Below, piece by piece: positions 10,753-60,422 of a DNA stretch of 64,000 bases (positions within the stretch are counted from its first letter, which is position 1; every line of letters starts with the position of its first letter). The position numbers and the translations under genes are program-made. Origin of the DNA: Flaccisagitta enflata (Eukaryota); NCBI GenBank assembly GCA_965153355.1, contig OZ231126.1, positions 12,524,001 through 12,588,000 of the forward strand. Direction: 5' to 3'. The notes below the pieces were generated by a model. That model was not told where the DNA came from, searched no databases, and was given only the letters and a program-made list of their open reading frames with translations.

Positions 10753-11253
<501 letters not shown>

Positions 11254-18873: not shown

Positions 18874-18952
18874 AAATAAGAATGCAAGAAAGCAAGAAAG
18901 CAAGGCAGAAAGAAGTAAAGAAAGCAAGAAAGAAAGAAAGGAAGAAGGAAAG

Positions 18953-19109: not shown

Positions 19110-19171
19110 CAGAGGGAGGAATCTTAAAAACCTTTTAACAGCTTTTAACAGATTTTAACAGCTTTTAACAG
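19110..19171 (+). repeat. Left terminal inverted repeat (62 bp)
   Basis: CAGAGGGAGGAATCTTAAAAACCTTTTAACAGCTTTTAACAGATTTTAACAGCTTTTAACAG; exact reverse complement of 43138-43199. Confidence 0.97.
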
Positions 19172-19464
19172 AAAGACCCTCTTTTTTTGGGAGGGAACCT
19201 GTTAAAAACCTCCAGAATAGTGTTAAAAGTCGGGGACCTTCTTTATTTCAAGAAGCGCTTAAAAACTGTTAAAAACAGCTTATGTTAAAAACTTGCCCCG
19301 TTAAAATCCTTGTTATAAATACATGTTAAAAATCTGTGTTAAAAACACTGGTGAAAAAATCTATTTTTGTTAAAAACTTGCTCTTACTAATTCCGAAATC
19401 TTCTTAGTCTTTGTTAAATTCATAGTTAAAATCCTTGATTTTTGTAAAAACTCAAGTAAAAGGC

Positions 19465-19611
19465 CATGTTAAAATCCTTGTTAAAATCCTTGTTAAAATC
19501 CTTGTTAAAATCCTTGTTAAAATCCTTGTCAAAATCCTTGTTAAAATTCCTTGTTAAAATTCCTTGTTAAAATTCATGTTAAAATCCTTGTTAAAATCCT
19601 TGTTAAAATCC
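19465..19611. repeat. Left subterminal array, 12-13-bp unit TTGTTAAAATCC, about 12 copies
   Basis: Direct tandem copies; further dispersed TGTTAAAA motifs lie between about 19200 and 20125. Confidence 0.9.
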
Positions 19612-21464
19612 GTTCCCTAACCTTTTTTGGGTGTTTAGAATCATTGCACTACAAATTTTCTTTGATCCTTCTTTGGTGAAAGCATCTTCAATTGCCAAGA
19701 TTCTTGTTAAGACATCTTGTTTCAGATATAAAAAAAAATCCATTTTATATTTTTCTTACTAAAACTATTAAGATCATTAAAAGTTCTCTAACAAAAAAAA
19801 GAGTCCTCCTTTTAAAAAAAGGTCTGTTAAATTGGTGTAAAAAATTTCCGTTAAAACCTACGTTGAAAGCTTATGTAAAAAGCTAAAGCAAAATTTGTTT
19901 TTTTTTTTGCTAAACAAAGCTGGCCCGTTTAAAAGTCAAACTCGGTGTAACCCAAATAAACTTACAATAATATTTTTAGACCCCAGCTCAATTTTAATGC
20001 GTGGTCCATGTAGAAAAAAACAGACCCAAGGGCAACAGTCTCGCACATTTGGGAAGTTGGTCAGGGGCAGTACTAAAACACACACAAACAAAACCTACTT
20101 AAAACCCTATAAACACCTTGTTAAAACCGTTGACTCATAGAATAGTTAGATCACATCTCCAACGCATGTTCTGAGCTAGTCGATCTATCGACTTCAGCCA
20201 CTAGCCACAATTTAATCATCAAGCGCAACCTTCAGATGTTAGATTTTACAATTTACATTCTTTCTGAGTGCGTGTTTCAGGAAAAATTCCATTAGTTAAA
20301 GGACTTTGGTTCTAGAGCCTACCATCATCATCATTTTCTTCATTTTGTTAGTGCTAGCGTTAGGGAACATGTCTGATTACTCCTTTGGTTAGGTTTTGGT
20401 TGATTCATGATCTTAGGATTGTTTTTGAGAGCAAAGTCAGTGAATTCAGCCTTTGTTGTCAGTCCCATTTGTCGCGATTGAGGCTAATCTGAGTTTGCTA
20501 GTTCTCATGTCTAAACACTACGCTCTCTTGTCAGTCTATCAGTGTTCCCATTATCCTTGTTGAGGGGTTGACTAGGTACATTTTACATTGGTCAGATTAG
20601 TTTGTTTTGTTGGTGTTTATTGGTTAGGCAGGCTTGTTAAGGAACCACATATGCGCGTGGTTCAAAAAGATTTCCACTTTTTCACTTTTTAAGTCACCAT
20701 ATGTGTCGAGTGATGTTATATCTGGGCCTCAATTGTCAGGTTGCTCTCACGCTCTTTGTGTTTTTTCTTTTGTTGCAAAACCAAAATCTGGATGTTTAAG
20801 CATTACCTTTTTTATCACACAAAATCATAAAATGATTACTCGATTTACGCCAACATCTTCAGACTCCTCCTACACTTCCTTTGCATAGTCCTTCCAAAAA
20901 AAGTCAATGAACTGAATCTATAAAATTAAGCAAAACCTATGGCTATTGGTTGAATTGATAGATGGACTACATATCGTCGTGCTCTGGGCTGTTTTAACAA
21001 ACAGAAAAAAGAAACGCGTTTTAGATTTGGCAATTTCACAATTTACATCAATGACTTTTCTCCTTATAGGTCCTCAGAACGAACCAAAGACTCGTTTAAC
21101 AAACCAAGAAGTAATCGCCCAAGTCAAATTTTGGTACTTGGAAACTCTCCAGGGTCAATTTCAACCCTTATTTTGCCAGTCTAGTGGTGCATGTACGCCT
21201 CTGTTGGACAGTCTTTAAACGTTCAGCACTGACTGTTAGCCCGAGCAAGAATCACTTCAGAACTAATGGCTGATATGACTTAGGAATGCTATCTGATTTC
21301 CCGAACTCTTGCATGTTGCAATTTCTTGTGAATCTTACTGTCAATGAAAATATAATAACCCAGTATTAGACTTTCACTAACTGAAAGTTGTTTGTCCCTG
21401 CAGATAGAGAACATCCAAAATCCTTTTGTTATTCTAGACTCACGCGGCATATACCCTCGTCATT

Positions 21465-24400
21465 ATGTCTGGTACCCTGAATTCCAAGCATTTCTTAAGG
21501 AATCAGCTTGTTTACGTTCATCTTGATGGGAAATGGCGTCAAGGCATTGCCATGGAGCCATCCGTGGACCACACATCGTACAACGTCAAGTGGAAGCATC
21601 CAGGAAAAGAAGAGAGAAAGAAAAAGCGCGTGATGAGGTTCGTACTTATTTGGTGGTTACTATATTCATGGAGAAGTCCTTGAGGGATGTGATCATTTTT
21701 GGCTTGAACTGTTAATTCCAACTGCTTTATAATTGGGCCAGCAAATGCGCCAATGTGTGCGCAGGGTGGATAGTCGAACAAATGCGTGACAGACCTACCA
21801 ACCAACAGATACAGCCTCTTATTGATGTGCGTCGGTGCACATAAACGACTGATCTTGATGTCTGGTGATTTGATAGCATGCGTGCATGAAGAACGATTAT
21901 GATTTGCTGATTTGTGGTAGGCGTTTGTTAATTTGCCATGCCATAACATGCATTTTTAGTCGCGGACACGCGACTCTACACCTTGCCGTGTCGGTCGGTC
22001 GGTAGGTCCGTCCGTCCGTCCGTCCGTCCGTCACATTGTTGAATTCCGGGCGGTTTTCACTTTACTGCTCCTGCCCAACTGTCCGCGACTGTCCTGCCGT
22101 GTATCCGGCCTTGTTTCTACAGCAAAGATATTCAAGTCCAAATGCCCGAAGGTACAATATTTTCTTTACACCCTATCATATTCATAAGAACTTTGGTATA
22201 TCTCTGATGTTAAGGAGAAACAGTTAAACCTCGCAATAACAGATGCCAAGGGACCAAAAAACTTGTTCAGTCAAAGTTTGATTTATCTTATTGTTAGTAT
22301 AGAAAAAAATTTCATGAAGAGATCAAAACTTTTTTCTTACTCATAATAAGTATATACATAATAACTTACATAATTTCAGTGGATTCACATTACTCTCGGA
22401 TCTGTTATACCGGGGTACAATTATTCCTTCAATAGCAGTCGTTAAAGCTGTTTTGAAAAAAAAATTCTTACAGTTCCTTTTTTTTCTTAGATTGTGATTC
22501 AAAGAATCCAGGATAACTGTTTTCTCAGGCTTGGATATAGTTGCATATTTCTCCCGCAGGCCTGGGGGGTGGGGGGAAGAAAAATAACAAAGAAAATGAA
22601 AATGAAGAAAAAAATCAAATGGTAAAAAATTATAAAAAAGAAAAATACAGTAGCTTTTTTATGTATGTCAGTACTAAAAAGTATTATTTACTGCAACACG
22701 AAATCACACTCTTAAAACAAAAGTTATTACTCCATAGGGGGTATGTGGGGATAAATCCATTAGTTTGACCACGTAGGGAAGAAAATCAAAAGATCAGGGG
22801 GTGGGGAATGAAATCCGAAGTCATGCAACTATATACACCCCTGCACTTTTTATATGCCGTACTGATTGTTACCCCGTTGGGCTTGTTGAAGCAAGAGTCA
22901 ATGTGACTGAAATTGTTTTTTTTTTTCATCCTCGATTCTGTAGTTTCATCATCGTGTTCAAAACATGATGTAATACTGTCAAGAAGAACCTTCTTAATGT
23001 AGCATTTTTAATATTTTATTCAACCGTTTTGCTTATTTCATCTTAGACTATCAGGCGGAGGTAGCTGCATCCGTGGAAAATCATTCGCCGCCATCGATTC
23101 CGCGCTCAGTTGATCAGAATCATCCGGCTGTGCGTGCTGAAGCGGAGTCAAATGCAAGAGGCCAGGCATCCGGACATGTCGACCCTTGCCAAAGTCAAGG
23201 TAGATGTTGTATTTGTTGGAGCACTCATATTCAAAACAAGGCGGGTGGTTAGGGGCAGTGATAGTGATTGGGGCAGCTGATTTCATCATTAGCATTTGAA
23301 ATTACAAAAAAATCTGTATTTTCTCCGCCCTCCCATCCGCAGTGTTATGGCATTTCTGGGTGATTGTTCAGTACCACAGAACGATGGAAAAACATAGATA
23401 CACCAATGCAATGTTGCATGTCTGCAGCTAGAAACCGTTGATGGATGATATAAATAAGCAATTTGATAACTCAGTACCAAACTACTTAAATATGCTATCC
23501 TCCTTTTACTCTACAGCCAGAAAGGTCGGTCCTCTTGGACTCTCTCAAGATAAAGAAGAAGAAGTGCCTATCATTCCTAACCCCAAAAGGCGGAGAGTCA
23601 AGAACCAATCTCTATTCCCGGAGACTCCGGATTTTGTTGGAGATGAAACTTTCGAGGCAACTGTTCTCGCCGAAGACTCTCAAGTCGATGATTTTGCAGG
23701 TAATAATTGATCCCTACCCTAAACTGATGTCATATTGAAAAGCTCTTCTCAAAGTTTTTGATTACATTCAACATCCAGCATGGCCGGATACATGGCAATC
23801 CAGTCGCAATTTCAAAAGTATTTCAGACAGACTGACGGACTGACCAACCGACACGGCAAGGTTTAGTCGCGTGTTTGCTACTAAAAATTTCAAAAGCATT
23901 GAAAATGCGCTTATCTATGTGTTCCTCAATATATCTATGTAGGTGACTCTGTCGGCGCCACCAGTAACATGGCAGGTACAACCACAGATGACGCCGCTAT
24001 TGCTGGTTTGAACGCTGATTCGACTGCAAAAGGATCAAATGCCAAGGACAATACCACCGTTGACGGCACTAACGGCGTTGCTACTTCCTACCCTCTGGAG
24101 GCTAATGCCGAGGGCGTTGCAGATGTTGATTCTTCCGCCAATTTGGAGGAAGATAACAACGCCGCCAATACCGAGACCAACAGCAACAGAGATATCAACG
24201 CCGCTTCTGGTACCGCCCGAGATGATGGTACCGCTGCTGACGCCACGGCTCCACCAACTTCTGCCCAGGATGATGCGCCTGATGCCCCGGCTGCTGGTGC
24301 CCCGGCTGCTGGTGGCCCGGCTGCGGGTGCCCCGGCCGCTGATGCCCCGGCCGCTGATGCCCCGGCTGCTGGTAATTTTGAATTCCATTTTTAGTCGCTT

Positions 24401-26469
24401 GCAAAAGTCTCATTTAGAGGGCGTGTTCATGTAATTATATTCTTATCTGTCACCATATCCTTCCGACGCGGATCTCTTTAAGACAGATTTGTGTTGTCTT
24501 TGTCTGGAATTCGACATTTGAAAACCTTTTTCAATTTCAGAGAATGAGATTTGGGACGGGACTTCGCGTTGGGAGATGCCTGCTAACTACAGCGAGCTGG
24601 ATCCAGACGTGGAAAAGAAAAGAGAGGTAAATTTCTCTTGAATTGTGTTCAGGGGGAGTGAACACAAGGCTGGATACACGGCTACCTAAGTTGCGTGCTG
24701 GTGGGCAGGGCAGGGGTAGGCTGCAACGTATTTGTACACTGATAAAGTAAAAAATCGCAATTTGATAAACAGACCGACACTGAAAATTGGCACTTCCTGG
24801 GGATTGATTGAATCATAGCGTTTTCTGACATGCATGACTTGTATTGTTTTCGCAGGCGATTCGCAACAAAGTTGGTTCAGCCGTGATTGAAAGTCTCAAT
24901 GAGGAAGCAACCAGAACTATGGTCAGATCCATCTTGGCTAAGAGTACCGGAGGATGGACACAAGTCCAGCTGGGAAAGTTTTTAGGTAAGCAAAGTTCTT
25001 TATTTTCGAATGCAACCGAGAGATTTGCAGAAACATTACTTCAGGGGATTGCCCCAGCCTACAAGTGAGTTTTTCCCAGTTGTCAATCCTGTATCCTATA
25101 TAGAATCGTAGAATCATTAGAATGTGGGAAATATTCTTACAATGTCATAAGATTTCATTGACTCTATTATACAGTAGATCTCGTCTAGACTTGAGATAAT
25201 GGGGGCAAGCATTGTGAAAAGATGAATGAAGGTAGGGGAGTGATATTTGAATCCTAGACTAATCACAGGATGCTTAATTCCCCATGATAGCTGGTTGCTA
25301 CGGAAACACTTTTCCATGTATTCTCGCTGAAATATCAATATTTTGAGAGATTTTTTAGGGAACATTGTTTAAAATCAAATTTGCGACAACTTTCCCACAG
25401 TATGTTCTGTAAGAATGTCGCTCATTTGGCTGTTGCTAGGGAGCGTATCCATGTGTGACAACCATTAGCAACAGATAAACGAGCGACATTCTTACAGAAC
25501 AAACTGTGGGAAAGTTTTAGCAAATTTGATTTTAAAAAATGTTCTCTCAAAAAATTTCTCAAAATATTGATATTTTAGCAAAAATACATAGAAATGTGTT
25601 TATTTAGCAACCCGATTTCATAGGCAATAAAGCATCCCTTTATTAGTCTATGTTTCAAATATTATTCCCCTGGCTTTATTTTTTTTCTACAATGCTTGCC
25701 TCCGTTATCTCGAGTCTAGACAAGATCTACTGTATAAGCTGATATTGCATTTTCTGCCGCCAATACAAGAATGAAAGGCTTTGTCCGTCGGTTGGTCGGT
25801 GTTGCGGTTGTTTGACAATCATGGCCTACTTAGCTTTGCGATATATTTCATTCCATTAGCTTAAAAACTTCACTGTGCTGTTTTTTTCCTGTTCAGCTCG
25901 ATCGGCGTCGATCCTCTCCAATTATCTGAACACTGACCCTGATGTCCGAAAGAAAGTTATTCCTGACACGCAAAAGATCATCGCAGAGGACCTGAAAATC
26001 TTTTTGACCTTCATCGCCAAGGAAGGCATTCTCCCAGAGATTGCAACCCGGAAGCCATTAAGGGTGAGTAAACAAGGCTGTTGGTTCGGGTCTGTTTTGT
26101 TGAAAATATATTACTAAAGAAAAGTAAGATCGACAAACTAACCAACTGATAGCTTGTAAGTGCGTGTAGACTGCTTAGAATATTTAGAATAGATCAACTC
26201 AGTGAAATACTCCAAATATTCCTTAACAGAAACCTCACGTCAGGAAGAAGACGAAGCATCCAGGCATTTCAGCGGAAAAGAAAAGGCTGATCCTACGGGC
26301 CTTCACCGACGCCGTCTCGCGCGCAAAGGCTGAAAAACCCGATCTTTCGGAAGTCGAGGAGGAAGGCGTGATTAAAGATTCCATGAAAAAGCTTTCCGAT
26401 TATCATGGCATTGAAATTGCCAAGATTCAGGACTTTTACCGTAATCATAAGAAGTTTGGAACCCAGTAA
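21465..26469 (+). CDS. Transposon accessory gene A, 529 aa: Tudor-like domain, acidic low-complexity linker, lambda-repressor/XRE-type HTH, homeodomain-like C-terminus
   Basis: Nine GT-AG exons with compatible phases: 21465-21637, 22123-22151, 23047-23199, 23517-23699, 23943-24371, 24541-24626, 24856-24985, 25897-26063, 26230-26469 (1590 nt, open to TAA). Motifs: VYVHLDGKWRQG..YNVKW..VMSKDI; WTQVQLGKFLARSASILSNYLN; MKKLSDYHGIEIAKIQDFYRNHKK. Upstream exons cannot be excluded. Confidence 0.75.
21954..22116 (+). mobile_element. HINE family A copy in intron 1 of gene A
   Basis: TTTTAGTCGCGGACACGCGACT ... (GTCC)n ... GCCGTGTATCCGGCCTTGTTT. Confidence 0.8.
25172..25732. mobile_element. Palindromic Tc1/mariner/pogo-type MITE (TA TSD) in intron 7 of gene A
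   Basis: TA-CAGTAGATCTCGTCTAGACTTGAGATAA ... TTATCTCGAGTCTAGACAAGATCTACTG-TA; arms complementary towards the centre. Confidence 0.8.
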
Positions 26470-26486
26470 TTGGCACCGGTGCCTTA

Positions 26487-27129
26487 TAGACCAGGTTGTT
26501 GAAGAAAGGACTCGGCTTTTCTGGAACAAAGGTTGAAAATTTGCATACAAGTATTTAAAGTGTTGTAGATCATAATAATGATAGATGCAGGTCAAAAAAA
26601 TTTGAGCACCTATCTTTAAAAATTGTTTAAAATTTTTAAAATCATGCCATCGCCAAACCGCTTGAGTGAGGGCAATGAAATTTTATGAGCTAAAAAATAT
26701 GTATTTCGTACGTATGCACACCAAATTTCAGCTCGCTAGCTTTATTAGAAGCAGAGATATAGCCGATTTACTTTTGTATACAAAAACTGCATTTGTTTGG
26801 AAAACGGGTATTTTGAAGATAAATGCACCCCAAAGTAAATCGGCTATATTTCCGCTTCTAATATAGCTAGAGAGCTGAAATTTGCTATGAACATGTATAA
26901 AACACATTTTTGTTTGCTCATGAAATTTTATTGCCCTGAGGCAGACAGTTTGGCGGTTTCATCGTTTTGAAAATTTTAGATGAATTTTTAAGATAGATGC
27001 TCAAATTTTTTTGACCTGCACCTATCATTATCATGATCTACATATCTTTAAATACTTGTAGGCAAATTTTCAAGCTTAGTTCCGGAAGAGCCGAGTTTGC
27101 TCCATTTCATGCATCAACAGACTGGACTA
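26487..27129. mobile_element. Palindromic MITE with TAG...CTA termini and 3-bp TSD (Academ-like)
   Basis: TTA-TAGACCAGG ... ACTGGACTA-TTA; long complementary arms (e.g. TGAAAATTTGCATACAAGTATTTAAAG / CTTTAAATACTTGTAGGCAAATTTTCA). Confidence 0.7.
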
Positions 27130-27427
27130 TTAAGCAAAAGCTGTCTTCCCTCGTTTTCATTGGATTGAGTTTAATAGAACTGGATGATTTTGAAAAGCCA
27201 TGATGCTCTATCTCATTATTGCTAAAAATGGCCAAATGTGTCATGGCCAGTTCTTTTTTCGTAGAATTGCGAATGCATGCGCAGCTAGATAGATATCTTT
27301 GTTAGCATTTTTATTTTTACTCTTTTTTTCTCACTTTCCGCTAAACTCTGTCATGTTGTCGTTATTATCGGGAAAAAAGTCGAAGTCAGTCTTCGATTTT
27401 GACATATTCGAGAGAAACATGGTTTTC

Positions 27428-27743
27428 ATTTTTTAAGTGCGTCCTCGCACTTCTATAAGAGGTCATGTCCGTTGGTTGGTCGGTCGGTCGGTCGGTCGGT
27501 TGGTCGGTCGGTCGGTTGGTAACGCAATCGTTTAAATCGCTCAAAACGGCCAATTCTTCATTACTATCACTTCTCATGCCTCACCACGCTCATTTTCATT
27601 CTTTTATTCATTCATTTATTCATTCATTCATTCATTCATTCATTCATTCATTCATTCATTCATTCATTCATTCATTCAAAACGTTCAACCACAAATTCTT
27701 AATCAAGCGAGGCGCACTTATTGGCCATAACTTGGCCTTGTTC
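27428..27743 (+). mobile_element. HINE-like element with GTCG and CATT tracts
   Basis: TTTTAAGTGCGTCCTCGC start, subterminal GCGAGGCGCACTTA, 3' hairpin GGCCATAACTTGGCC, CTTGTT end. Confidence 0.65.
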
Positions 27744-27899
27744 ATGAGAAAGTCGAGTATCGCATCTGGGCGAATGTGGCCTCAAATGAAATTGATAGGA
27801 GTAAGAACATATGATAATTCTCTTTCATTTAGCGCCAAGCAGAACAAAAATTTTAAAGATTTTTAGTTGCAGGCACGCGACTCTACACCTTGCCGCTTG

Positions 27900-28610
27900 T
27901 TTGTTGTTCGGCAGGTCCCTCGGCTGGTTGGGTGGTAGGCTGGTTTGACAAGATAGTGTGCATGTGTTGAGTTCTTCCATTTAGAAACTCCATACCAAGT
28001 TTCAATCAAATTGTTTGAAAAATTTCAAAGTTATGCAAGTTTTTCAGTTTTAGGCTGATAGGCTAGTTGGGTGGTACGCTGGTTTGCTCGGTTAGCATGT
28101 GAATTGCTGGTTGGGTGGTAGGCTGGTTTGACAAGATAGTGTGCATGTGTTGAGTTCTTCCATTTAGAAACTCCATACCAAGTTTCAATCAAATTGATTG
28201 AAAAATTTCAAAGTTATGCAAGTTTTTCAGTTTTAGGCTGATAGGCTAGTTGGGTGATACGCTGGTTTGCTCGGTTAGCATGTGAATTGCATACATGTGT
28301 TAAGTCCCTCTATTTTGAAACTACATATTAACCAAATCGGTTAAAAAATGCTATAGTTACGCATGTTTTTTTACTTTTAGGCTGGTTGGGCTGGTTGGGA
28401 TGGTCGGATCAAACAAATCAGATAGGATGTAAAACGCCTTACCCTAGTGCTACTTCCCACCAAATATCAACCACATTAGTAAAAAAACATAAAAGTTATC
28501 CATATTTTAAAATCCATGACAACAACAACACCCACCCGCCTTGAATTATAAAAAAATTGCACTGGCTGAGGATGAAAGCTTCGTACAAAGTGACCAATGC
28601 TTACGACTTT
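27900..28610 (+). mobile_element. Dispersed element with internal tandem repeats of about 150-180 bp (probably HINE-type)
   Basis: 27923-28105 is repeated almost exactly at 28106-28288; a homologous copy lies inverted at 32705-33920. Confidence 0.6.
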
Positions 28611-28925
28611 ATTCCACACGGCAATTACTGCCATTACTGGTAGGAGTTATGTTGATCAGCTTATCTTTTTTCAGTGACAGTACGTTACTACATCGTTATA
28701 TTAGCTCTAGTGCTTTTAAGCCATCTTTTGCGACGGTCTTCTTAAGAGTGACTTCGTCATCAAAGTGATTCCCGTTATTCGGCAGTAACTCTTCGTGTTT
28801 CTTCCTAAAGCAGAGCCTTGCATCGTTCTTCGGCGTGGCAAAATCTCATCGGCAGAATCGTCGTTTAGCAGGGCGTCTTCGAGTATCACATCTTAAATCT
28901 TATATTAAGCGTTCCAGTTGGCTTA

Positions 28926-29605
28926 ATGAACATGAATATCATCGTAACTTCGTCTCAAGATCCCGTAGCCAATGCGACTCACGCCAAGTGTGCTATATGC
29001 CTCGGCATTGTCCCAGCTAGGAGGGCTTCAATACATCGAATTAAGTGTGAGGAGCAAAACCCCGATCTCGTGCCTCCGTTTCGATGCGCTGGTGCTTCAG
29101 GCCATATGTTCCATACTGCGTTTGAGTTGGAAAGGCACGAGCGATCTTGCCCTTGCCTTGCGGAGATACGAGAGTCACTCCTTGGGCCACCCCGACCAGT
29201 TGTGACGGGCAATGTACGTGCGCCGACTCCAACCAATCTCATTCCCGACGAACAATGGACAGATGAAGATCTCATAGAGACCGATCGATCTTTCGAATTG
29301 CCGCCCGTCCGCGATGACGAATACGACGCGTACACGGCAAAGGCAGTTCATGCCTTGGCAACCGAATTTTCTGATGATTGTCCTATTCGCAAGTGAGTTT
29401 TTCTGCACTCGTTGTTTCTTTGAGTTTCGTTTGATGGTGATACTTAACTCTCAACGCACCTCATCGCAACTTAATACATCAACATCATGATACAATAGAT
29501 AAACCTAGTTAAATACTGCATCACGATGCTGATGGAGTAACCACATTGGGTTGCGATTTATTTAATAGCTAATGCCTTTCTAATCCCCTCTCTCTCTCTC
29601 TCTCT

Positions 29606-29651
<46 letters not shown>

Positions 29652-31309
29652 CATACACACACAGAATTAAACGTTTACATCAACGCGCTCTTGGCATAGT
29701 GAATGGAAAGGGCAGCATCCGTGAGAGCGTTCCCATCATAACCCTCCCCATCAGCAATCCGCCAATAGCTTCTCATGATCCGCTATCGCATGAGGTCATT
29801 TCGGACCTTCTGGCGCTGAGTCCTATGGAGCGTGAGAAGCGGATGATTCAGCTTCTGATGCAGTTAAAAAGAAAGCATCCAACTGGGGAGCAGAAGGCGA
29901 CTTTTATTGCGCGGGCCAAATCGTTTTGCGCCATGATTGATCATGATCGGCTGCCACGCTTTGTTTTGAACCTTTGCGATGGAAACTTTCGAGAATTAGG
30001 CCATTGGGAATCAGGCCTTGGCCACTCAACGCCTATCCAAGTGGCTTACACGCTGGGCCTTGGTCATATCAGTGTGGAAATCTTCGAAACTTATCTATAT
30101 TGGAATTCTTGCCTTGAAGAAGAAGTAGTTTTCGAATTCGCCAAATTAGCGGGAAAACAACGTGTTGGAGATGCGATTGAGCAACTGATCAAGCTGCTTA
30201 ATCCGAAATTTGATGCCATCAGCCATCTTCAACTGAATGAATTTTTCTTTGATCGCATCTCTAAATTGGATGGAATTCCGCCTCCAAACCCGCAACGTGT
30301 TCGCAAGTTCATCTCGGAACTGAGTGATAGTGTGGGACTCTCAGACAAAACGGAATTTGAACAAGTCAATGAATATTTCAAGAAACTCTTGGATCGCCTC
30401 TCTCAGGGGGGTATGGAGCTCGTGGATTTTGTTATCAGGATCCATCAGGCATGTGGGGAAGAGGACCGATATTGGTTGGCAATCTTTACGCTGCTCTATG
30501 AGAAGATGCCTGACGTTGGATATGTTTTGTACAAGACCTTGTCGCCCCTGGATGGTTTTGTCCATCTCCAGCCGCCTGTTGATGTTGCCTTGCTCCCCTC
30601 AAGTTTTAAAGAAGCTAAATGCGACAAAAACGGGGTTTATTTCCACGAGCTCTGCGATTCGGCTTCATTTTTGGTTGTTGAGCAAGAAGAAGACTACAAC
30701 CGTGCCATCGCATCAATTGTTGCGGAGACTGGACCCATTCCGCTTGTGGTGAGGAAATCTCAACTCCCGCCGCACCTTCCCAGACCTCCCGGCTTTGCAG
30801 TTCTAGCAATTATTGCTGAAGATATGACCTTCATTTTGCAAGCTGAGTCAATCATCCTAGGCTCCCCGCAGGAGGCGCTCTTTCGTCGTCTCGTCAATTC
30901 CTTGTCTTCAAAATATTTGATTGTTTCGGGTTCCGCGGGATGGTCGCCGCTGACCATGATTCATGCCCTTCATCGTGAATTTGAGCCCTGCTTTCCCATC
31001 TTGCTGACCACGGTTCTTCAAAAGCAAACTACGAAGAAAGATGCCTTGGCTTTACTTGTTTTGCCTGATGGCGAAGCTGTTTGTCACAGATTTGAGCTGA
31101 CCATCTGGGAGTATTTCGAAGATGACGATGACCTGAAAATCCGCCACTTGGCTGCTCAACTCCAACTCATAAAAAGGGCGACATCTATTTTGATGGCAAA
31201 TGGTGCCAGTTTGGAGTCCCTCGCTGTCGATGGCCACCGCTCTTACAAGAAGGCCCAGAAGAAAGCTACGCGACCATTCAAGAATTATCCCTTCAAAGTT
31301 GTTGATTAA
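28926..31309 (+). CDS. Transposon accessory gene B, 703 aa: GTSF1/Asterix-like tandem zinc fingers fused to a degenerate Mut-7/EXD3-like 3'-5' exonuclease domain
   Basis: Exon 1 is 28926-29392 (donor AA|GTGAGT); exon 2 is 29665-31309 (acceptor ACACAG after a (CT)n tract). The phase-2 join is in frame (2112 nt). Fingers: CAIC-x11-HRIKC-EEQNPD and C-x5-H-x10-H-x3-C, then acidic DEQWTDED. The C-terminal region follows the Mut-7 exonuclease motif order but lacks the catalytic acidic residues. Confidence 0.8.
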
Positions 31310-31400
31310 TGAGGACGTGGTATTGGAAGAAAACGGCAATCACATTACTTTTCTAAAAACTTGTAGCGACAATGACTACGCAATTGAAAGGGTCCATATT

Positions 31401-32524
31401 TTAATGAAACTGAAAAAAACTCTTGAAATACTTTTTCGCCAGTTTTACATGACGTAGTGACGGTCGTGCCATTGGAACATCAGCCAACAATCGTTCTTCC
31501 TTCGCCAGGCGCTGTCCCGACCGCGAGACGGCATCCATTCCTTTCACGTCTTCCGCCACGATAGATCCCAAATGTGTGTAAATAAATAATGCGTATAAAT
31601 AATCAACACGTTCATAGCGAATCTCGTCTGGGAGTTCTGGATCATCGATAAACACTCTCAAACCCATTTTGTGCAAATCCATAAGGCGGAATAATTTCAT
31701 AATTTTCGCGCTGGCGGATGGCTTCGCACGTTGAGGCTCGGGCTGCCGGCGTAGGATCGCAGTAGACTAAATTGGCGCCATAACTTTCTGATAATAATGG
31801 GTCAAAAGCGTCAACCAAATGGTAGGGTAACATCTGTTCGCTGGGGTTAGAGACGTGTAATAATCTTCCTATTACCCCCCCCCCACAATTGCCATGGGAG
31901 ATAAGGACGCCATTCAACGGCAACCCACCGCAAGTGCAAATGCGGGATCGATGTCTTCATAACTCGGTGTCGTGATCGTGATAAAGAGATACGCCGCAAC
32001 CCCATCTTGTAGGAACTCGTGATAAGTGGGAACAAAGAGTGGGAAAGTCTTGTAAGCCGACCCAACAGCGTCGGAAACCCAACTATCATTTCCGTTTCTT
32101 CAGTTCTTCGAATCTTACATCTCGGAATAACATGGTGTTTAACGCCAAAGGACATGCGTCTCGACTGAAGAACATCACTCGTTTCTGCTTCTCTGCTTCT
32201 TTGAAGGGCGTTGCGGAGGTCCAAACTAGTGACAAAGGCGGATCGCCGTTCGTCTTCCGTTGGTGGCCAATGACTTAGTCGCCAGTACAAATAAGTCACG
32301 CCGCTGGTGCTGGTGTACACAGAGGCGTCATGAAATTTGAGTGTTTCTTTGTCAGATTCCTATTTGTGATTAGTTTCGCGCGACATGACAATAGTTTGGT
32401 CGGGAAATCGCTCTCGAATCCCTCAGCAGTCAAATCTTGACAGGCGGAAAGGATTGGGGAATTCGCGAGATCCGTCACCCATATTCGGCGTTTCAAACAC
32501 TCATTTTATAATTTCTTTCTCCAT
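31401..32524 (-). pseudogene. Probable frameshifted cargo gene of unknown function
   Basis: Four consecutive overlapping minus-strand ORFs (32296-32496, 31847-32320, 31642-31923, 31401-31700) in non-repetitive, coding-like, GC-richer DNA. One shift lies at the C-run near 31875-31884. No family recognised. Confidence 0.4.
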
Positions 32525-32704
32525 CACCTTTGTATCTTTAAGCGCCGGTATGGAAAAGCCGGTATGGAAGAGACTGCTTTACAATGACGCGTTTTGAGAT
32601 TAGGGGAATCTTAAATTTTAACGTAGATCCGATTATTAGTAACTTCTCATTATGAACGTGAATATTATCTGAATGTTAATGGATGTAAAGGCCGTTAGAT
32701 AAGT

Positions 32705-33920
32705 TTTTTTGTCCGCGACGGATTTTAAAAAATAGATAACTTTTTTATGCTTTGACTGATCTGGTTCATATTTGGTTGGAAGTTGTACAAGGGTAAGGTG
32801 CTTTACATCCTATCCGATTTTTGTGATCCAACCAACCCAACCAGCCCAACCAGCCTACCGGCCTAAAACTGAAAAATGTGCATAACTTAGGCATTTTTCA
32901 ATCGATTTGGTTGAAATTTGGTATGGAGTCTCTAAATGGAAGGACTCAACATATGTATGTGATTTATATACATTTGAGCATGCTAACCGGCCAAACCGAC
33001 CTACCACCTAACCAGCCTACCGACCAAAAAGTGAAAAACTTGCATAACTTAGTCATTTTTCAACTGATTTGGTTGAAACTTGGTATGGAAGAACTCAACA
33101 TATGCACACTATTTATCCTGTCATACCAGCCTACTACCCAACCAGCCTACCAACCTACTAGCCTAAAAGTGTAAAAAGTGCATATCTTTGGCGTTTTTCA
33201 ACCAATTTAGTATGGAGTCTCTATATGGAAGGACTCAACACATGTGTGTGATTTTTTTATTTGAGCATGCTAAGCAGCCAAACTGACCTAGCACCCAACC
33301 AGCTTACCAGCCTAATAGTGAAAAAACTTGCGTATATTGGATATTTTTCAACTAATTTGGTTGAAACTTGATATGGAGTTTCTAAATGGAAGAACTCAAC
33401 ATATGCACACTATTTATCCAAACCAGCCTATCACCCAACCAGCCTACCACCCAACCACCCTACTACCCAACCACCTTACTAGCCCAAAAGTGAAAAACGT
33501 GCATAACTTTGCCATTTTTTAACTTTTTTATGCTTCGACCTATTTGGTTTATATTTAATGGAAGGTTGTAATAGGGTAAGGCGCTTTATATCCTATCCAA
33601 ATTTTGAGATCCGATCAATCCAACCAGCCCATCTAGCCTACCAGCCTAAAAAGTGAAAAACATGCATAACTTTGGCATTTTCCAACCGATTTAGTTGAAA
33701 TTTCGTATGGAGTCTCTTCATGGAAAAACTCGACATATATATGTGTCCTAAGTGATTTGTATTAATTTGAGCCTGCCAACCAGCCAAACCAGCCTACCAC
33801 CTAATCAGCCTACCAGCCTAGAAGTGAAAAACTTGCATAACATTATCATTTTTTAACCAATTTGGCTGAAACATGGTGTGGAGTCTCTAAATGGAAGAAC
33901 TCTACATATGCACGCTATGT
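32705..33920 (-). mobile_element. Second, inverted copy of the tandem-repeat-containing element family
   Basis: About 7-8 diverged units containing GCATAACTT..CATTTTTCAA..GATTTGGTTGAAA..TGGTATGGAG; 32705-32830 is the reverse complement of about 28405-28520. Confidence 0.65.
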
Positions 33921-36534
33921 GAACTTTTACTTGTTGCAATCTGAAGAGTTAGTGATCTTTTGATTAAATTGATCTTAAGGAATCTTCAACCCCCTTCCCT
34001 CCTGGACGCAAATACAGTTCAGATTTTCTCTTTTTACTGAGCTATGGATATTTGTGATCTAAGTAGCCATTTTGTCATTGTCATCGTCCAACAAATATAA
34101 GCTTCTTAATGTGTTTACCTAGTTTTAGATAATGATAAAGCAAATCATGATGATTGTCACTCACTGTAACTCTCTCTGTGTAACGTTCTGGGCTTAGACA
34201 TAAGAAACAGAAAATGGAGACTTTACTGCAGCAAAAACTGACTGCCCTGCGGGAAAAGTTTGATGCGCACCCTATTTCAAGAGATGCCTTAAAATCCGAC
34301 TCAAACTTCCTTCGTGACTTGCGTTGTAAATGCGGTTGGACAATTTCCATAAAAGAAGGAGCAAGGCCCTCCAAGGTTCTTACTGAAGTAAAAGAACACT
34401 ATGCCAAAAGAAAAACCATTTCCACAGCCCGAAAATTTAAGAATTCTGATGATCGGCACAGCCTCTTTGGATTCCATTTGGAGGATGATAACATTGTGTG
34501 CCACCAAACACCATCTGTCTTGGGGTGGCTTAATCCTGCAGCGGCAAGGGCCCCTCCTCAGCCAACAATACCTACAAACAAAAAGTATGTCTACCCAACA
34601 TCTGCTATAGATGAAATTCAACAACAAGAGAATGAAAAAAAGGACATAAAGCAAGCTTCTTTTGAAAGTGTGCAACAGCAAGAGAATGAAAAAAGGGACA
34701 AAGAGCAAACTGCCTTTGAAAGTGTTCAACAACAGGAACAAGAGAATGAACAGCAACAAAACTCACTGAGCGAAACTGCCATTGCAGAATCAGATCAGCG
34801 TGAACGTCAACGAATGCAAAATTCCTTTAAAGCCATGTTAGATCAGTTTGCCAAAATGCCTACAACTCCAGACTGGCTTATGAATCTCATTTGGGCTCAC
34901 AAAAATGGTAAAATCGATGCCGTACAAACCGCCGCACTAGAAGCTTTGGGGTCATCTTTCACTGACGCTCCTCGGAACCGACAATATTGCGAATTGAGTA
35001 AGGTTTTGTTCCGATACTTCAGTCTCACACAATCTGAAAAGTCCTATGAAGTATTTCGCCGCATTTATGGTGGTCCGACTTTTCGATATCTGACCGCTCT
35101 ACGCATAGACATTCTCACTGATGTGGGTTGTACAACCCGAAATATGGTGGAAGCGCGTATTTTCTTTGAAAAGGTAAGTTGTTGAAGTTTTTTTTATTCG
35201 TGGACATGCGACTCCACCTTGCCGTGTCGGTCGGTCCGTCAGTCACATTTCTGAATAGCGATTGGTTTTCGCATTACTGCTCCTGCCCAACTGTCCGCAA
35301 CTGTATTGCCGTGTATCCGGCCTTGTTTATTTCCAAAATTCAGAAAATGCTAACATAGTAACATTCTCCAAAGATGGAGATGTTCAAAAAGAGGCTCTTT
35401 AGCCATGTAAACAATTATTCACTGTCAGTTGGTCAGTTTTTAGGTTGAGTATTTAAGTATGAATTTAGTGATCAAAGTAGGTACTCTGCTATGAATAGAA
35501 AACCGCTTGCGACAGTCACCCCATTGACCTTGTTTAATCCTAATCTTGTTCTTGACAGATGGGCTACAAAGGCGTTATGATATGGGCTCATGATGAACAT
35601 CCAACCATGTGGGGCCTCAACTTTGATACTGCAAGTGGCCAAATAATCGGCGGCACTAATAAAACGCCACACGGAGACCTTAAAACAGTGAATGATGTGA
35701 TAGATTTCCTCAAAAAGCATACCAATGTTAGCAATCAACCAACTGTCTCATTGGTTGGGGCAATTTGTGCCTTGGGGAAACGTCTCCCGCTCTGTCCAGT
35801 TAGTTCTGAGCTCAGCCCACTTCTCAAAGGAGTGACATGGGAGTTTTTAACCACCTATTTGGAAAATGTTGGTAAAGCCGCCTTTTTGGCACTAGTGATT
35901 ATCGTTGCCATAGTGACAGACAATGATACGAGGATGCGTGGCAACACTTTAAACACTTGCTTGAAGGAACATATGAAAGAAGATGACGTTTATGTTGAAA
36001 TTGATCATCCAGCTTCCAGAATTGTTGCTCCTTGCATTTTCAACCGAGGTAAACCGGTTGCAAGACTCAAAGATGTGGAGCATCTACAGAAGGGATGGAG
36101 AAACAATCTTAATGTTCCAATGGTGTTGGGGTCCGAGAGTTTGTTTTGGTTGCACGTGGACCAAGTTCGTTTGTGTTTTCCTTACAGCCAGCATGGTTTA
36201 GGCGTCATGGACACCAACATTGCAGTAAGTGAATTTGTCCTCTTTAGTTTCTATAATATTTAGGCCTCCGTCGGTCCGTCTGTCGGTCCGTCCATTGATC
36301 CGTCTATCAGTCCATCATGGTCATCGAGTTGAAAAGTGGGAAAACAAGTGTTTTAGGTACTTGATAGATGCCCCAGCCCACCCGTCCACAACAATATTGT
36401 GACCCTGCGTCAATTGTTCAACTTAATCATCAAATCATCATATATGGACTAACTGATGGACAAAGCCTCTTGTAGAGTTGCACGAGTTATCACGGACCAT
36501 TGTAGATGGATCTTTAGAAGGACTGATTGTAAAG

Positions 36535-38642
<2,108 letters not shown>

Positions 38643-39832
38643 TTGTAAAGCCACGAGTCTGCATCTAGAAAGATTATGGCAAGTTTCTTATGGTAACTCT
38701 TATCATTCAACAAAATATCAACTCAGTGACATTCTGATTGAACAACATGACAATAATTTCTGCATATTGAGCTGTTGTTCTTGTTTCAGCAAGAGCTGGT
38801 AGGTCTCTTTTTGCTTTTTCTGGTCGTGGATACGCGACTACACCCTGATGTGTCGGTCCATCTGTCTTTAACGCTTTAAGTTTGTCTATTAGTCACATTT
38901 GTTAATTGCAAGCGGTTTTCACACTACTGCTCCTGCCAATTTATTTGTGACTGGATCGCCATGTATCCAGCGTTTTTTAAAGTTTTGGAAGCGCAACTCT
39001 TTTAGAGGCTTTGTCCGTCCATCAGTCCATTTGTTGGTTCATGTTCAAGAGTCGAAAATGGGGAAAACAAGTCTTTTAGATCCTTTTTGAGTATGTGTTT
39101 GTTGAAAGGGGGGGGTGGGGTGTGGATGGTTGTTAGGAATCCACTGCCCACCCATCCGCAAAGATATTGTGACCCCGCATCACTTGTTGCATCATTGCTC
39201 CTGGCATTTGACATATACAGCTCACTCAGCCTATTGTAACAAGTCTCTTGTTGTATAGAATGTAATAGACCAATGCCCATGTACAACTACTTTTCATCTT
39301 CTTCACAGGATCGCCAGAAAGTGTCGCCAGCCCAGAGGGTATTGCATCCAAGAGTGCGCAAGTGCCTGAGAGAGCTTGACCGGAGGAAGAAGTCTAGCGA
39401 CCGAGAAGGGCTTTGTATCTACCTGGAGGTCGGTGATAAAATGGTGGAAGCTTTAATGAGCCAAGAGATGGACTTTCTTCAAAGGATATATTATGTATGG
39501 CGAGCTCATTTTTTTCTTCAAGAATGGAAGGCCTGGTTTTTACATGAAAATAACTGCTACTCCGGGAAATTTAGAATAAATGCCTTACCATCTCAGCAGA
39601 TAATGGATGGAGTAGAGATAACAGCCAATGGTCTCACTCTGCTTATTATCATTATGGCCGAGTTCTATCCAAATGAACCGCTCTTAGTTGATCAAGTCAA
39701 TACTAAGAAGCTAGAAAATTTCTTCGGCACTGTTCGACAACAGCCTGGTAATTGTCAAAGCCACACATTGCAAGAAATGATGGGAAAGCAACGAAGAGCG
39801 GTTCTGAAAGACTTGACTGAAAACGAGTTGAA

Positions 39833-40556
39833 ATAGCAGCCCAAAGGCAGTAAGTGGTCAGCGGTACCCGTGCCCTGCTTGAGTAGTATGTGATTTAGGT
39901 TGAGGGGGAGCAGGGCAGCGGCCCCGAAGGGGACGAAGTCCTGTAGAACACAGGGGAATCTGTCCATCCGTCCGTTCGTCTGTCCTCCTCAGCTTTCCTT
40001 GCCTTCAGGATGCCAAATTATGAAAATCTCAAATGACAAATGGAAATATACAAGGGCAATTGGACAAGGGTGGGGGAGCAGGCCAGGATCTAGGTCTCTG
40101 AGGCCAGAATCTGGGTCTCAGAGGCCAGGGTTGGAGTCTCTGAGGCCAGGTCTTTGGGAGGAGGATAGGGCCTTGAGATTTAGGTCCAGGTCCTGGGTCC
40201 TGGAGGCCAGAATCTGGGTCACAGAGAGCAAGATCTAGATCTCTGAGGCTAGGATTAGGGTTTTAGAGGCCAGAATCTGGGTATTAGAAACCAGGATCTA
40301 GATCTTAGGGGCCAAAATGATTGAATTTTGACCAAAATTCAGGTTTTCTAGCCAGAATTTAGCCATTTTGCTTGGATTTTGCCATTTTGCTTGGATTTGG
40401 GCCATTTTGCTTGGATTTGCACTCCAAAGAAGACAAAGCCCTGAGAATGGGGCGGGGGGGGGACGGACGTACGGACGTACGGACGTACGGACGGACGGAC
40501 GGACAGATTCCCCCTGTGTTCTACAGGACTTCGTCCCCTTCGGGGCCGCTGCCCAA
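39833..40556 (-). mobile_element. HINE family B inserted in transposase exon 3
   Basis: Near-perfect inverted repeats (39912-39965 vs 40501-40554). Removing it restores GAG TTG AAG TAC (ELKY); it inserted at an AA/TT site, as Helentrons do. Confidence 0.85.
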
Positions 40557-41763
40557 AAGTACTGTGATAAACTACCTCAAGAAGCTCAAAAATTGCCCGA
40601 CAATTGCTACCCAGCAAATATCCCTGATTTACGGCATGAAATCAATTGCCGCATTGATCAAGCTAAAAAAGATGTAAAAGAAATGTTAAAGCCTTTCTTA
40701 GTTCTACCTTCCGATCCTGCTGATCCCCAAGAAGCTGTTTCATCTGAATTTGAAAGAGAGGAAGGTGGCTTTAGCGATGATGACGAAGACCAGTCACATG
40801 AGTTCCAAGACACTGGATTGTCACAGAAATCCGCTCACACTGTTGTTGATGAAGATGGGAGCCATCATAGTATACCATCCCTTGTGAGTGAATGGATAGG
40901 GAATCCAAGAAGAAACCGGGCAAGCAATAGGCTAGCACGATTCCTTAATGATCTCCACTACATGCCCCGCGATACTAATCCTCGCCTCTTTGAACAAGTT
41001 CGCGAGGGCATAATTTTAAGAATCAATGACTATGTGCTTTACCCAAAGAGGCTTAACAAGCAGAAAGACTTGCTTGTCGGAAAAGTCATTTGTTTTGTGA
41101 ATCATTACATTGCAAAAGGTGTTCAACGACAACAACAGCTTTTTGAAGCTAGCTCACGTGAGGATGAAGTCTGGTTGCGTCTTTTTACCGTTGACAAGAA
41201 TGGTCAGCTCCATTACTCCCACGAACGTTATGAAAAGGTTTCATTGGCGCTGATCAATTCACAACAGAACCTGACCACTGTGAGAAATGGAAAGATCTCA
41301 GATTTTGTTTTAGAACGATACTTTGAATTGAAACCTCTGCTTTGGAAGCCTTTTGATGATCTTGAGAAAGCAAAAGATGATGCAAAAAAAGCTGAAAGGG
41401 AAAAGAAACTGCAAGAGTGTACGGTTCCTATCACTTCATTGAGGTTGGATGAAGCCTGGAATGAGTGTTTTCGACGGTTGAAAATTAAGGATAAGAGAGA
41501 ACTGTTTGATGCATTAAAGCAGCTAGAAGGATCAATTTGTGCGGAGTTGGAGCTGGAGGAAACCAGCAGATCGTTTACTCTTGCTCGTTTAAAGCTGATA
41601 ATTTCCGTTTTGCGCAAGAATAACGTCTGGCTTCCAGAAGAGAATGACGATGACCAAGGAACTCAGGAAGAACCAGAAGTTACCCAAGCAGAAACTCAAG
41701 CTACCCAAATGGAAACTCAAGCTACTCAACCGGATGAGAATGATCATTGATGGTATGTCTTGC

Positions 41764-41769
41764 AATAAA
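41764..41769 (+). promoter_or_regulatory. Putative polyadenylation signal of the transposase gene
   Basis: AATAAA 13 nt after the stop codon. Confidence 0.5.
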
Positions 41770-41932
41770 TGTGCTTAATTTATGTTTAGGCATATCTTTA
41801 TTCCTCCTTTCACATTAGGTAGTAGGCAAGTAAAGAACTTTATAACCCAGTACAAAGCTCAAATTTGCTAGTCAGCAGGATTAAGAACTACATAATTTAG
41901 ACGAAATTTTGACCCAAAAGACAAGTTGTTTA

Positions 41933-42998
41933 ATAGGTTTTTAACACATTGTTAGATAGGTTTAGGTTTATAACAAAATGTTAAAACGGTTTTTAACACA
42001 CTTAAAATGGTCTTTAATATTCAAATATAACACACTGTTGAATACGGTTTTTAACACATTATTAAAAAGTTTTTTAACATATTGTTTAAAAGGTTTTTAA
42101 CACATTGTTAAAAAGGTTTTTAACACATTGTTAAAAAGGTTTTTAACACATTGTTAATAAGGTTTTTAACACATTGTTAAAAAGGTTTTTAACAAATTGT
42201 TAATACGGTTTTTAACACATTGTTAAAAAGGTTTTTAACACATTGTTAAAAGTGTTTTTAACACATTGTTAAAAAGGTTTTTAACACATTGTTAAAAAGG
42301 TTTTAACACATTGTTAAAAAGGTTTTTAACACATTGTTAAAAAGGTTTTTAACACATTGTTAAAAAGGTTTTTAACACATTGTTAAAAAGGTTTTTAACA
42401 CATTGTTAAAAAGGTTTTTAACACATTGTTAAAAAGGTTTTAACACATTGTTAAAAAGGTTTTTAACACATTGTTAAAAAGGTTTTTAACACATTGTTAA
42501 AAAGGTTTTTAACACATTGTTAAAAAGGTTTTTAACACATTGTTAAAAAGGTTTTAACACATTGTTAAAAAGGTTTTTAACACATTGTTAAAAAGGTTTT
42601 TAACACATTGTTAAAAAGGTTTTTAACACATTGTTAAAAAGGTTTTTAACACATTGTTAAAAAGGTTTTTTAACACATTGTTAAAAAGGTTTTTAACACA
42701 TTGTTAAAAAGGTTTTTAACACATTGTTAAAAAGGTTTTTAACACATTGTTAAAAAGGTTTTAACACATTGTTAAAAAGGTTTTAACACATTGTTAAAAA
42801 GGTTTTTAACACATTGTTAAAAACGTTTTTAACACATTGTTAAAAAGGTTTTTAACACATTGTTAAAAAGGTTTTTAACACATTGTTAAAAAGGTTTTTA
42901 ACACATTGTTAAAAAGGTTTTTAACACATTGTTAAAAAGGTTTTTAACACATTGTTAAAAAGGTTTTTAACACATTGTTAAAAAGGTTTTTAACACAT
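41933..42998. repeat. Right subterminal array, 23-bp palindromic unit GGTTTTTAACACATTGTTAAAAA, about 40 regular copies
   Basis: Homogeneous from about 42047 to 42998 and degenerate upstream; each unit is TTTTTAACA-CAT-TGTTAAAAA. Confidence 0.95.
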
Positions 42999-43137
42999 TA
43001 TTTTTTTAACAGATTGCTCACAAGGTTTTTAACCGTTTTTTAAAGTTTTTTACAGTTTTTAACAGAAACATTCTCCCTCAGTAAGCTTTTAACAAGCTGT
43101 TAAAAGCCTTTTAACACGTACCTCTTTAATTTGGGGC

Positions 43138-43199
43138 CTGTTAAAAGCTGTTAAAATCTGTTAAAAGCTGTTAAAAGGTTTTTAAGATTCCTCCCTCTG
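43138..43199 (-). repeat. Right terminal inverted repeat (62 bp)
   Basis: Exact reverse complement of 19110-19171, followed by TSD CTTATA. Confidence 0.97.

Positions 43200-59110: not shown

Positions 59111-60422
<1,312 letters not shown>

Follow-up and report, generated by a model that had tools for sequence, protein, structure and literature searches.

A 24-kb transposon, plausibly of a divergent P-like lineage, carrying an accessory gene in the genome of Flaccisagitta enflata

The DNA analysed here, called the window in what follows, is a stretch of 64,000 nucleotides of contig OZ231126.1 of Flaccisagitta enflata (assembly GCA_965153355.1, positions 12,524,001 to 12,588,000 of the forward strand), and all coordinates are those of the window. 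Positions 19110 to 43199 are occupied by an element of 24,090 bp that is bounded by terminal inverted repeats (TIRs) and a target site duplication (TSD), and that contains a spliced transposase gene, an intact two-exon gene, here called gene A, and a group of coding-looking segments, here called gene B. A preceding reading of the letters (the original prediction) had proposed a P-like DNA transposon equipped with an anti-silencing cargo. The structural find is real and unusual: the element is a well-bounded transposon with an accessory gene A. Its ends, and the host-repeat copies used to reconstruct the insertion site, are as follows.

19104-19109, no strand assigned: left TSD copy, CTTATA
19110-19171, + strand: left TIR, 62 bp, beginning CAGAGGGAGG
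19467-19611, + strand: left subterminal array of a 12-bp unit, TGTTAAAATCCT, 11.9 copies
42028-42999, + strand: right subterminal array of a 23-bp unit, 42.4 copies
43138-43199, - strand: right TIR, 62 bp, 100% complementary to the left TIR
43200-43205, no strand assigned: right TSD copy, CTTATA
47753-47848, 22032-21953, 7753-7669, 37245-37325, 16995-16939 and 27516-27430: host-repeat copies matching the rebuilt empty site

The two 62-nt arms (pair I22 among the 340 inverted pairs of the window) are complementary along their whole length, and each is built of four copies of the 10-bp unit CTTTTAACAG. A search of the 64-kb window with the terminal 23-mer of the TIR, tolerating up to 3 mismatches, found two sites, which are the two ends of the element, and none of 100 shuffles yielded two matches. 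The duplication is exactly 6 bp long and lies directly outside both arms. When the flanks were joined and one CTTATA was kept, the rebuilt empty site aligned without interruption across the junction to the six further copies of the host repeat listed above. The shared duplication and the unbroken host repeat thus reveal that one event placed a single unit of 24,090 bp in a copy of a high-copy host repeat, with a 6-bp duplication of the target. Perfect 62-bp TIRs, a TSD and a split host element had all been predicted and are borne out, and the results also support the prediction of one TIR-bounded DNA transposon far above the size of classical P elements. A 22-nt tip of the TIR had no match in the metagenomes of the Joint Genome Institute (JGI).

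The heptamer GTTAAAA is concentrated at the two ends. The window contains 72 forward and 63 reverse occurrences, with 12 forward and 4 reverse in 19110-19500, 43 and 49 in 41900-43199, and 4 and 5 outside the element; every 23-bp unit of the right array carries the heptamer in both orientations. Motif arrays at both ends are the expectation for transposase-binding sites, and the GTTAAAA arrays are therefore regarded as putative binding sites of the transposase.

The transposase gene comprises four exons, with a nested repeat between the third and the fourth.

34214-35173, + strand: transposase exon 1, 320 codons, starting with ATG, containing a Q/E-rich repeat
35559-36224, + strand: transposase exon 2, 222 codons, RNase H-like
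39309-39747, + strand: transposase exon 3, LENFFGTVRQ motif with the candidate catalytic E
39832-40559, no strand assigned: nested 728-bp host repeat of foldback type, resembling a miniature inverted-repeat transposable element, with a second copy at 5386-6078
40615-41750, + strand: transposase exon 4, or possibly a separate open reading frame (ORF), 377 codons plus stop, without a family match

Joined across GT..AG introns with matching phases, the four exons form a coding sequence of 3,198 nt (coding end 41747), or 1,066 codons, which is free of stops; the splice sites (splice point marked by a slash) are AAG/GTAAGT to ACAG/ATG between exons 1 and 2, and GCA/GTAAGT to CACAG/GAT between exons 2 and 3. 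By eye, the C-terminal part of exon 1 looks like the helix-turn-helix region at the N-terminus of P transposases, and exon 2 contains candidate catalytic residues, i.e. the D in AHDEH and the D in TDND, as well as a DxxH motif in the form DVEH. The motif order in the joined protein, again by eye, is D, D, DxxH, LENFFG..R, as in P/THAP9 transposases. In a feature search of the ESM Atlas with exon 2 (recognition 2655), sets carrying PF21787 (TNP-like_RNaseH_N) made up 17+8 of 30 matches at 0.92-0.93, and the best match (0.95) was an unnamed cluster. In a Pfam scan that covered 28 ORFs or segments plus three fragment relatives of gene A, PF21789 (TNP-like_RNaseH_C) matched the stretch LENFFGTVRQQPGNCQ (residues 158-173 of the exon 3 ORF) with E=0.11 and 12.9 bits, the cut-off being 24. 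Thus, of the predicted spliced P-like transposase, the spliced gene stands as a model, with four exons in phase and no stop, whereas its P-likeness is suggested by concordant, weak evidence from the Atlas and from PF21789. A single-sequence AlphaFold2 model of the transposase core reached a predicted local distance difference test (pLDDT) value of 36, too poor for a fold search.

The junction between exons 3 and 4 deserves separate consideration. Beyond the donor, the open frame of exon 3 extends as far as a TAG (39834-39836) where the nested repeat begins, and the interval 39748-40614 would be 139 bp long without that repeat, the inverted ends of which (39913-39985 against 40554-40481) are 93% identical. 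It is possible that the nested repeat landed in a short intron, in which case the transposase gene is intact; it is also conceivable that it landed in an exon, and that this copy encodes a shortened protein.

Gene A lies upstream of the transposase gene and has two exons.

28926-29392, + strand: gene A exon 1, 467 nt, ATG at 28926, donor AA/GTGAGT
29665-31309, + strand: gene A exon 2, 1,642 nt up to 31306, acceptor CACAG/A, 547 codons plus stop

The joined exons comprise 2109 nt and 703 codons with no internal stop, so that the predicted intact multi-exon gene is indeed present, with a clean GT..AG junction. Exon 1 contains a CHHC-spaced pattern, C-x5-H-x10-H-x3-C, at 29085, which is followed by an acidic tail containing Trp, and a second finger recognised by eye, C-x2-C-x11-H-x3-C, a CCHC variant. 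The CHHC pattern was found twice in the six-frame translation of the window compared to a mean of 0.5 in shuffles, and an occurrence within an exon of 156 codons is thus unlikely to be due to chance. The family zf-U11-48K (PF05253) was absent from the Pfam results for exon 1 at E<=10, the sole family listed being zf-CRD with E=0.27. The GTSF1 likeness that had been proposed for gene A is therefore reduced to one spacing pattern, for which the spacing of the GTSF1 CHHC finger served as the comparison. It should be noted that a TGA overlaps the intron donor (29391-29396) and that retention of the intron would produce a zinc-finger protein of 156 aa, comparable in size to GTSF1.

A HMMER search with exon 2 against 1.84 billion representative proteins yielded 12 proteins at E<=1e-3, and 11 of them were kept. 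The remaining one, P0011 (567 aa, 9 stretches), is a tandem repeat protein and was dropped as spurious. The 11 relatives are fragments of 78-136 aa encoded on short metagenome contigs of the European Nucleotide Archive (ENA), they are 23-52% identical to gene A, and they cover residues 222-340 (five distinct fragments), 77-174 (three), 408-507 (two) and 334-402 (one) of the query. ELGH and PIQVA are among the blocks that are invariant in these relatives. Judged by the number of relatives and by their common invariant blocks, gene A is a member of a real, conserved, unnamed protein family. None of the HMMER relatives is a Mut-7, an EXD or any other named protein. Seven of them (P0001, P0002, P0004, P0005, P0007, P0009 and P0012) lose similarity at query residues near 170 and 338, and at both stop points a G precedes K or E, the residues that a read-through GT(A/G)AG donor would give, whereas gene A of the element is continuous; three further fragments start matching near residues 334 and 408. 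Because the stop points are shared and the residues are donor-like, the relatives appear to bear introns that the copy of the element lacks, and gene A probably derives from an intron-bearing gene family via a processed copy or intron loss.

A relationship of gene A to Mut-7, which had been guessed earlier, is suggested by language-model features. In the Atlas feature search the first matches (0.94, 0.92 and 0.92) were all clusters of PF01612 or of mut-7 homologs, 630-740 aa in length; 197 of 256 and 191 of 256 features were common to gene A and top clusters, and the ten best matches with an assigned family all belong to the family or the clan of PF01612. In contrast to this ranking, profile, sequence and fold comparisons gave no such match. 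The Pfam results for the exon 2 ORF contained neither PF01612 nor Mut7-C at E<=0.1, and both were also missing at E<=10 from those for the C-terminal 227 aa and for the three relatives. Searches of PDB with the sequence and with a C-terminal profile gave nothing relevant, a word-indexed protein search, with a query that included the SLSL low-complexity head, gave no match, and of the pattern matches to gene A motifs in JGI metagenomes (112) and in viral contigs (39) none was confirmed. Hence, the likeness to Mut-7 is treated here as a lead. Mapping by hand onto the DEDDy pattern places VVRKSQ of the element and VFAKGSS of fragment P0010 at the DxE position, and HLAAQ or HFAAH at the YxxxD position, the acids apparently being replaced likewise in P0010, P0003 and P0006. 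On this mapping, the catalytic acids of the exonuclease appear to be replaced.

Gene B consists of six candidate exons.

21466-21637, + strand: candidate first exon B1, with ATG, small beta-rich segment, no family match
23441-23699, + strand: candidate exon B2, in phase with B3
23943-24371, + strand: candidate exon B3, acidic Ala/Pro-rich low-complexity sequence, GT..AG intron from B2
24856-25064, + strand: candidate exon B4, helix-turn-helix-like segment, phases not fitting its neighbours
25860-26063, + strand: candidate exon B5, donor at 26064, in phase with B6
26230-26466, + strand: candidate exon B6, stop at 26467-26469

Of the junctions between these exons, 23699^23943 and 26063^26230 are the ones that fit in phase. 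At the best splice sites, the phases of the B3-B4 and B4-B5 junctions do not fit, and the junction of B1 is likewise unfitted, so that the earlier claim of a second intact gene is not borne out. Gene B is better described as a set of coding-looking candidate ORFs. The Tudor/DNA-binding label that it had received was likewise not supported: no Tudor-type or any other Pfam family matched the ORF at 21438-21683 at E<=10, and the sole weak match of gene B was that of PF23713 (WH_Egal) to the B4 region (24838-25065), with E=0.012 and 16.5 bits (cut-off 27). One such match after about 30 scans of ORFs or segments is near the chance level. Egalitarian is itself an exonuclease-domain protein, and the PF23713 match could thus link gene B to the family of gene A, at that same near-chance level.

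Sequencing runs were used to follow the element outside the assembly. DNA run X1, probably the source of the assembled individual, has contigs on the unique parts of the element with no differences and at an even depth of about 72-100; the depth of about 79 on unique parts may represent one copy or several. Marine metagenome run X2, from another study, contains pieces of the gene B region, of gene A and of the transposase core with 0-5 differences and at a depth of 2.7-4.7. Pieces with so few differences mean that sequences of the element occur in nature beyond the assembled individual, which does not imply this locus in X2. DNA run X10, from the same organism and study, contained 0.05 of the sampled words of 28800-36300, compared to 0.85 in X1; this low share could reflect low coverage or the absence of the element from the sample. 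Among the matches listed for words of the element in indexed sequencing runs there was no RNA run.

Repeats account for a considerable part of the element. The stretch between the terminal arrays measures 22,309 bases, of which at least 5,894 are found again at other places in the window, and most 546-bp bins of 21430-37800 have depths of thousands to millions in run X1, compared to about 72-100 for the unique parts. Much of the 24 kb would thus represent nested host repeats in introns and spacers and not cargo. The repeat at the insertion site (18940-19109 plus 43200-43300) is a high-copy host repeat that resembles a short interspersed nuclear element (SINE); its core is (GGAC/GGACG)n, and it also contains a CCTCTTATAGAG box. 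Other SINE-like copies lie near 47600-47850, 7669-7880, 21947-22116 and 37121-37330. In run X1 the depths of this repeat sum to between 1e5 and 1e6, and the consensus around CCTCTTATAGAG was seen again in loose ends of RNA reads.

These features are best explained by a recent cut-and-paste transposon of 24,090 bp that is P/THAP9-like, if very divergent, that has kept gene A as an accessory gene, and that contains gene B as candidate ORFs; we assign this reading a probability of about 0.6. The transposase would bind to the GTTAAAA arrays and cut at the TIRs, and the size of the element would largely result from long introns and spacers filled with nested host repeats. The product of gene A would combine one or more CHHC-type zinc fingers, a helical domain and a C-terminal Mut-7-like exonuclease fold. 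As its catalytic acids are apparently replaced, it would bind nucleic acid and not cleave it, and it probably serves the element as a non-catalytic, nucleic-acid-binding accessory factor. Two roles can be envisaged, i.e. help in transposition, by analogy with the exonuclease domain of Dada elements, or interference with small-RNA silencing. P elements leave long 3' overhangs. For some Dada transposases, processing of exposed 3' ends has been suggested as the task of the exonuclease domain (Kojima and Jurka 2013, PMC3706591, in excerpts).

The likeness to the P superfamily (P element, 1360, Galileo) and to THAP9 comprises TIR-bounded cut-and-paste organisation, repeated motifs near the ends, a spliced transposase, the motif order D...D...DxxH...LENFFG..R, the TNP-like RNase H features and the weak PF21789 match. 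The candidate catalytic residues are spaced by about 107 positions (D-D) and about 239 positions (D-E), while the respective values for P transposase are about 73 and about 228. P elements have a size of a few kb, in contrast to the 24 kb of this element with at least one extra intact gene, and its TIRs are composed of 10-bp repeats. Keyword searches of open-access text retrieved no P-like element with a comparable set of genes; their scope was limited and they are no proof of absence.

Several results weigh against this reading. The TSD has 6 bp, compared to the 7-8 bp on record for Galileo, P and described P-superfamily elements (excerpts of PMC4168063). No family reached its cut-off in the Pfam scan, and the transposase core had no match in word-indexed protein searches, at near and longer lengths, and in PDB sequence searches, nor had exon 3 or the terminal part of exon 1 in the latter. 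Neither the THAP family in exon 1 nor the pattern C-x2-4-C-x30-60-C-x2-H in stop-free six-frame stretches of the element was found; a THAP domain interrupted by an intron would escape this pattern search. At the third transposase junction, the nested repeat may have disrupted the reading frame. Neither the TIR nor any ORF is present in another copy within the 64-kb window. The polyadenylated RNA run X9, of which 12.2 million reads, or about 6%, were sampled, gave no depth on unique parts of the element and no support for any splice junction, all 216 reads placed overlapping only partially and at repeats, which speaks, if weakly, against strong expression in the sample. For gene A, the Atlas recognition of 2236 lies below the 2300 mark. 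Its structure model has an overall pLDDT of 57, with confident parts at the helical residues 40-140 and 230-320 and values below 50 over residues 355-483, the putative exonuclease part, so that the fold searches tested the helical part alone. These searches produced generic helical or alpha-solenoid entries (best Foldseek E 0.034, best VIA Z 6.5); structure modelling and Foldseek, which had been proposed as a check of the silencing hypothesis, returned for this helical part generic repeats and no named silencing factor.

The alternative that survives best, albeit an unlikely one, accepts the transposon and views genes A and B as passengers, i.e. as diverged copies or fragments of host genes acquired by transduplication, possibly in processed form, that are of no benefit to the element, with gene B decaying. 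The apparent loss of introns from gene A, the phases of gene B that fail at the best splice sites, the missing RNA depth on unique parts in the X9 sample and the many nested repeats with which the element is littered would all fit this view. However, gene A has kept a stop-free frame of 703 codons and a clean GT..AG intron, and the conservation of specific blocks in its family at 23-52% identity speaks for a working protein. The perfect TIRs suggest a young insertion, which would have left scant time for decay in either case.

A further alternative, which we consider less probable again, retains the accessory gene and questions the superfamily: the element would belong to another branch of the group defined by the DxxH motif, which hAT, Kolobok, P, MuDR and Dada have in common (excerpts of PMC3706591), and would be Dada-like or represent an undescribed superfamily. 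As far as the excerpts of the same source go, Dada elements have a TSD of 6-7 bp, no TIRs, short subterminal inverted repeats, multicopy small RNA genes as targets, and a large, intron-bearing DxxH transposase with CCCC and CCHC zinc fingers, to which some members add a DEDDy exonuclease domain of the WRN/Mut-7 kind (PMC3706591). The 6-bp TSD of the present element thus fits Dada and not the 7-8 bp of P (PMC3706591, PMC4168063, both in excerpts), the insertion, a single one here, into a multicopy repeat resembles the habit of Dada, the transposase is likewise large and intron-bearing, the exonuclease domain of some Dada elements recalls gene A, and a THAP domain and a significant P-family profile match are missing. 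On the other hand, the 62-bp TIRs have no counterpart in Dada as described in those excerpts, and the CCCC and CCHC patterns, the spacings of which were derived from residue numbers in PMC3706591 and loosened for the search, had no match in the four transposase exons. The insertion target is no recognised small RNA gene, as ARAGORN found no tRNA and a search of Rfam no family in the window. In addition, the Dada exonuclease domain has kept DEDD and is part of the transposase (excerpts of PMC3706591), whereas gene A is separate and has apparently lost the acids; the Atlas features indicate a TNP-like RNase H, and the LENFFG..R motif has the weak match to PF21789. The TIRs, the absence of the Dada fingers and a target that is no recognised RNA decided the choice in favour of a divergent P-like lineage, a label that is plausible although two defining features of P, the length of the TSD and the THAP domain, fail.

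The original prediction went further than a divergent P-like transposon with an accessory gene, and suggested that genes A and B may form a counter-defence module. Spelled out, a GTSF1-like head fused to a dead Mut-7-like body would, together with a Tudor/DNA-binding partner, act as a decoy and blunt silencing by PIWI-interacting RNAs (piRNAs) or small interfering RNAs. This is doubtful, and an anti-silencing role of the cargo is at present speculation by analogy. Plant VANDAL transposons encode VANC, which manipulates host silencing. Further transposons that manipulate silencing are on record in Drosophila, where TART-A has captured a piece of nxf2 (excerpts of PMC7785250), and in fungi, where DNA transposons encode TET/JBP (excerpts of PMC12730594). 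What these precedents have in common with the present element is the idea of a mobile element that carries a silencing-related gene or piece; no homology of VANC, TART-A or TET/JBP to the genes of the element was found, and TART-A, according to the excerpts, works via piRNAs from the captured fragment and not via a protein decoy (PMC7785250). The placement of gene A among mut-7 homolog and PF01612 clusters, the CHHC-spaced finger followed by the Trp-containing acidic tail, and the apparent replacement of catalytic acids in both the element and P0010 would be consistent with a decoy. Against it speak the lack of a significant match to PF01612, PF01927, PF05253 or a Tudor family, the lack of a PDB sequence or fold match of gene A, the absence of visible expression in the sampled X9 reads, and the exons of gene B, which join only in part. 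With Mut-7, EXD3 and Nibbler (PF01612), gene A shares its length (703 aa compared to 630-740 aa of the clusters) and a helical N-terminal half, which is confidently predicted; it differs from them in having no sequence, profile or fold match, no DEDDy residues on hand mapping, an added zinc-finger exon and its location in a transposon. In a narrower form, the hypothesis would confine the decoy to a GTSF1-like head and a dead Mut-7-like body that were taken from an intron-bearing host family and selected for blunting silencing, which we regard as slightly more doubtful still.

Finally, that the 24 kb are not one element but host DNA flanked by two short inverted copies, or an assembly artefact, is very improbable, as the single copy seen and the Logan contigs of run X1, which break at every nested repeat and none of which spans the element, are opposed by the identical 6-bp duplication at the outer edges, outer flanks that together restore an unbroken host repeat, with six other copies aligning over the junction, TIRs of 100% identity, motif arrays confined to the two ends, and unique interior parts with even depth of about 72-100 and no differences in run X1. 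A composite of two separate elements was rejected, the rebuilt empty site being continuous across the junction.

If the family is mobile and its copies keep gene A, the divergent P-like transposon described here would widen the known range of P-like transposons by an element of 24 kb with a 6-bp TSD, no THAP domain and an accessory gene. On the same condition, gene A would be a concrete candidate for a counter-defence by protein, or for a helper of transposition, on a DNA transposon of a eukaryote that is neither plant nor fungus. An exonuclease-like accessory gene would also echo the exonuclease domain of some Dada transposases, a hint that modules for end-processing or RNA binding may be needed repeatedly.

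One further feature lies within the element, between gene A and the transposase gene.

31401-32359, - strand: three ORFs of 121, 104 and 170 aa that overlap in different frames, without family match

Run X1 has a variant contig at this region, and a piece of run X2 at 31933-32116 shows 10 differences and 2 gaps. This region possibly represents a degenerate gene or a repeat of low copy number. Outside the element, an ORF of 415 aa (59004-60251) resembles, by eye, the C-terminal part of the reverse transcriptase of a long interspersed nuclear element, for which Pfam gave no support, and a coiled-coil ORF of 257 aa (13959-14732) matched DUF7310 with E=4.7e-5, under the cut-off of the family. Repeats and microsatellites abound around the element; at 10742-11317, for example, trinucleotide repeats extend over about 600 bp.

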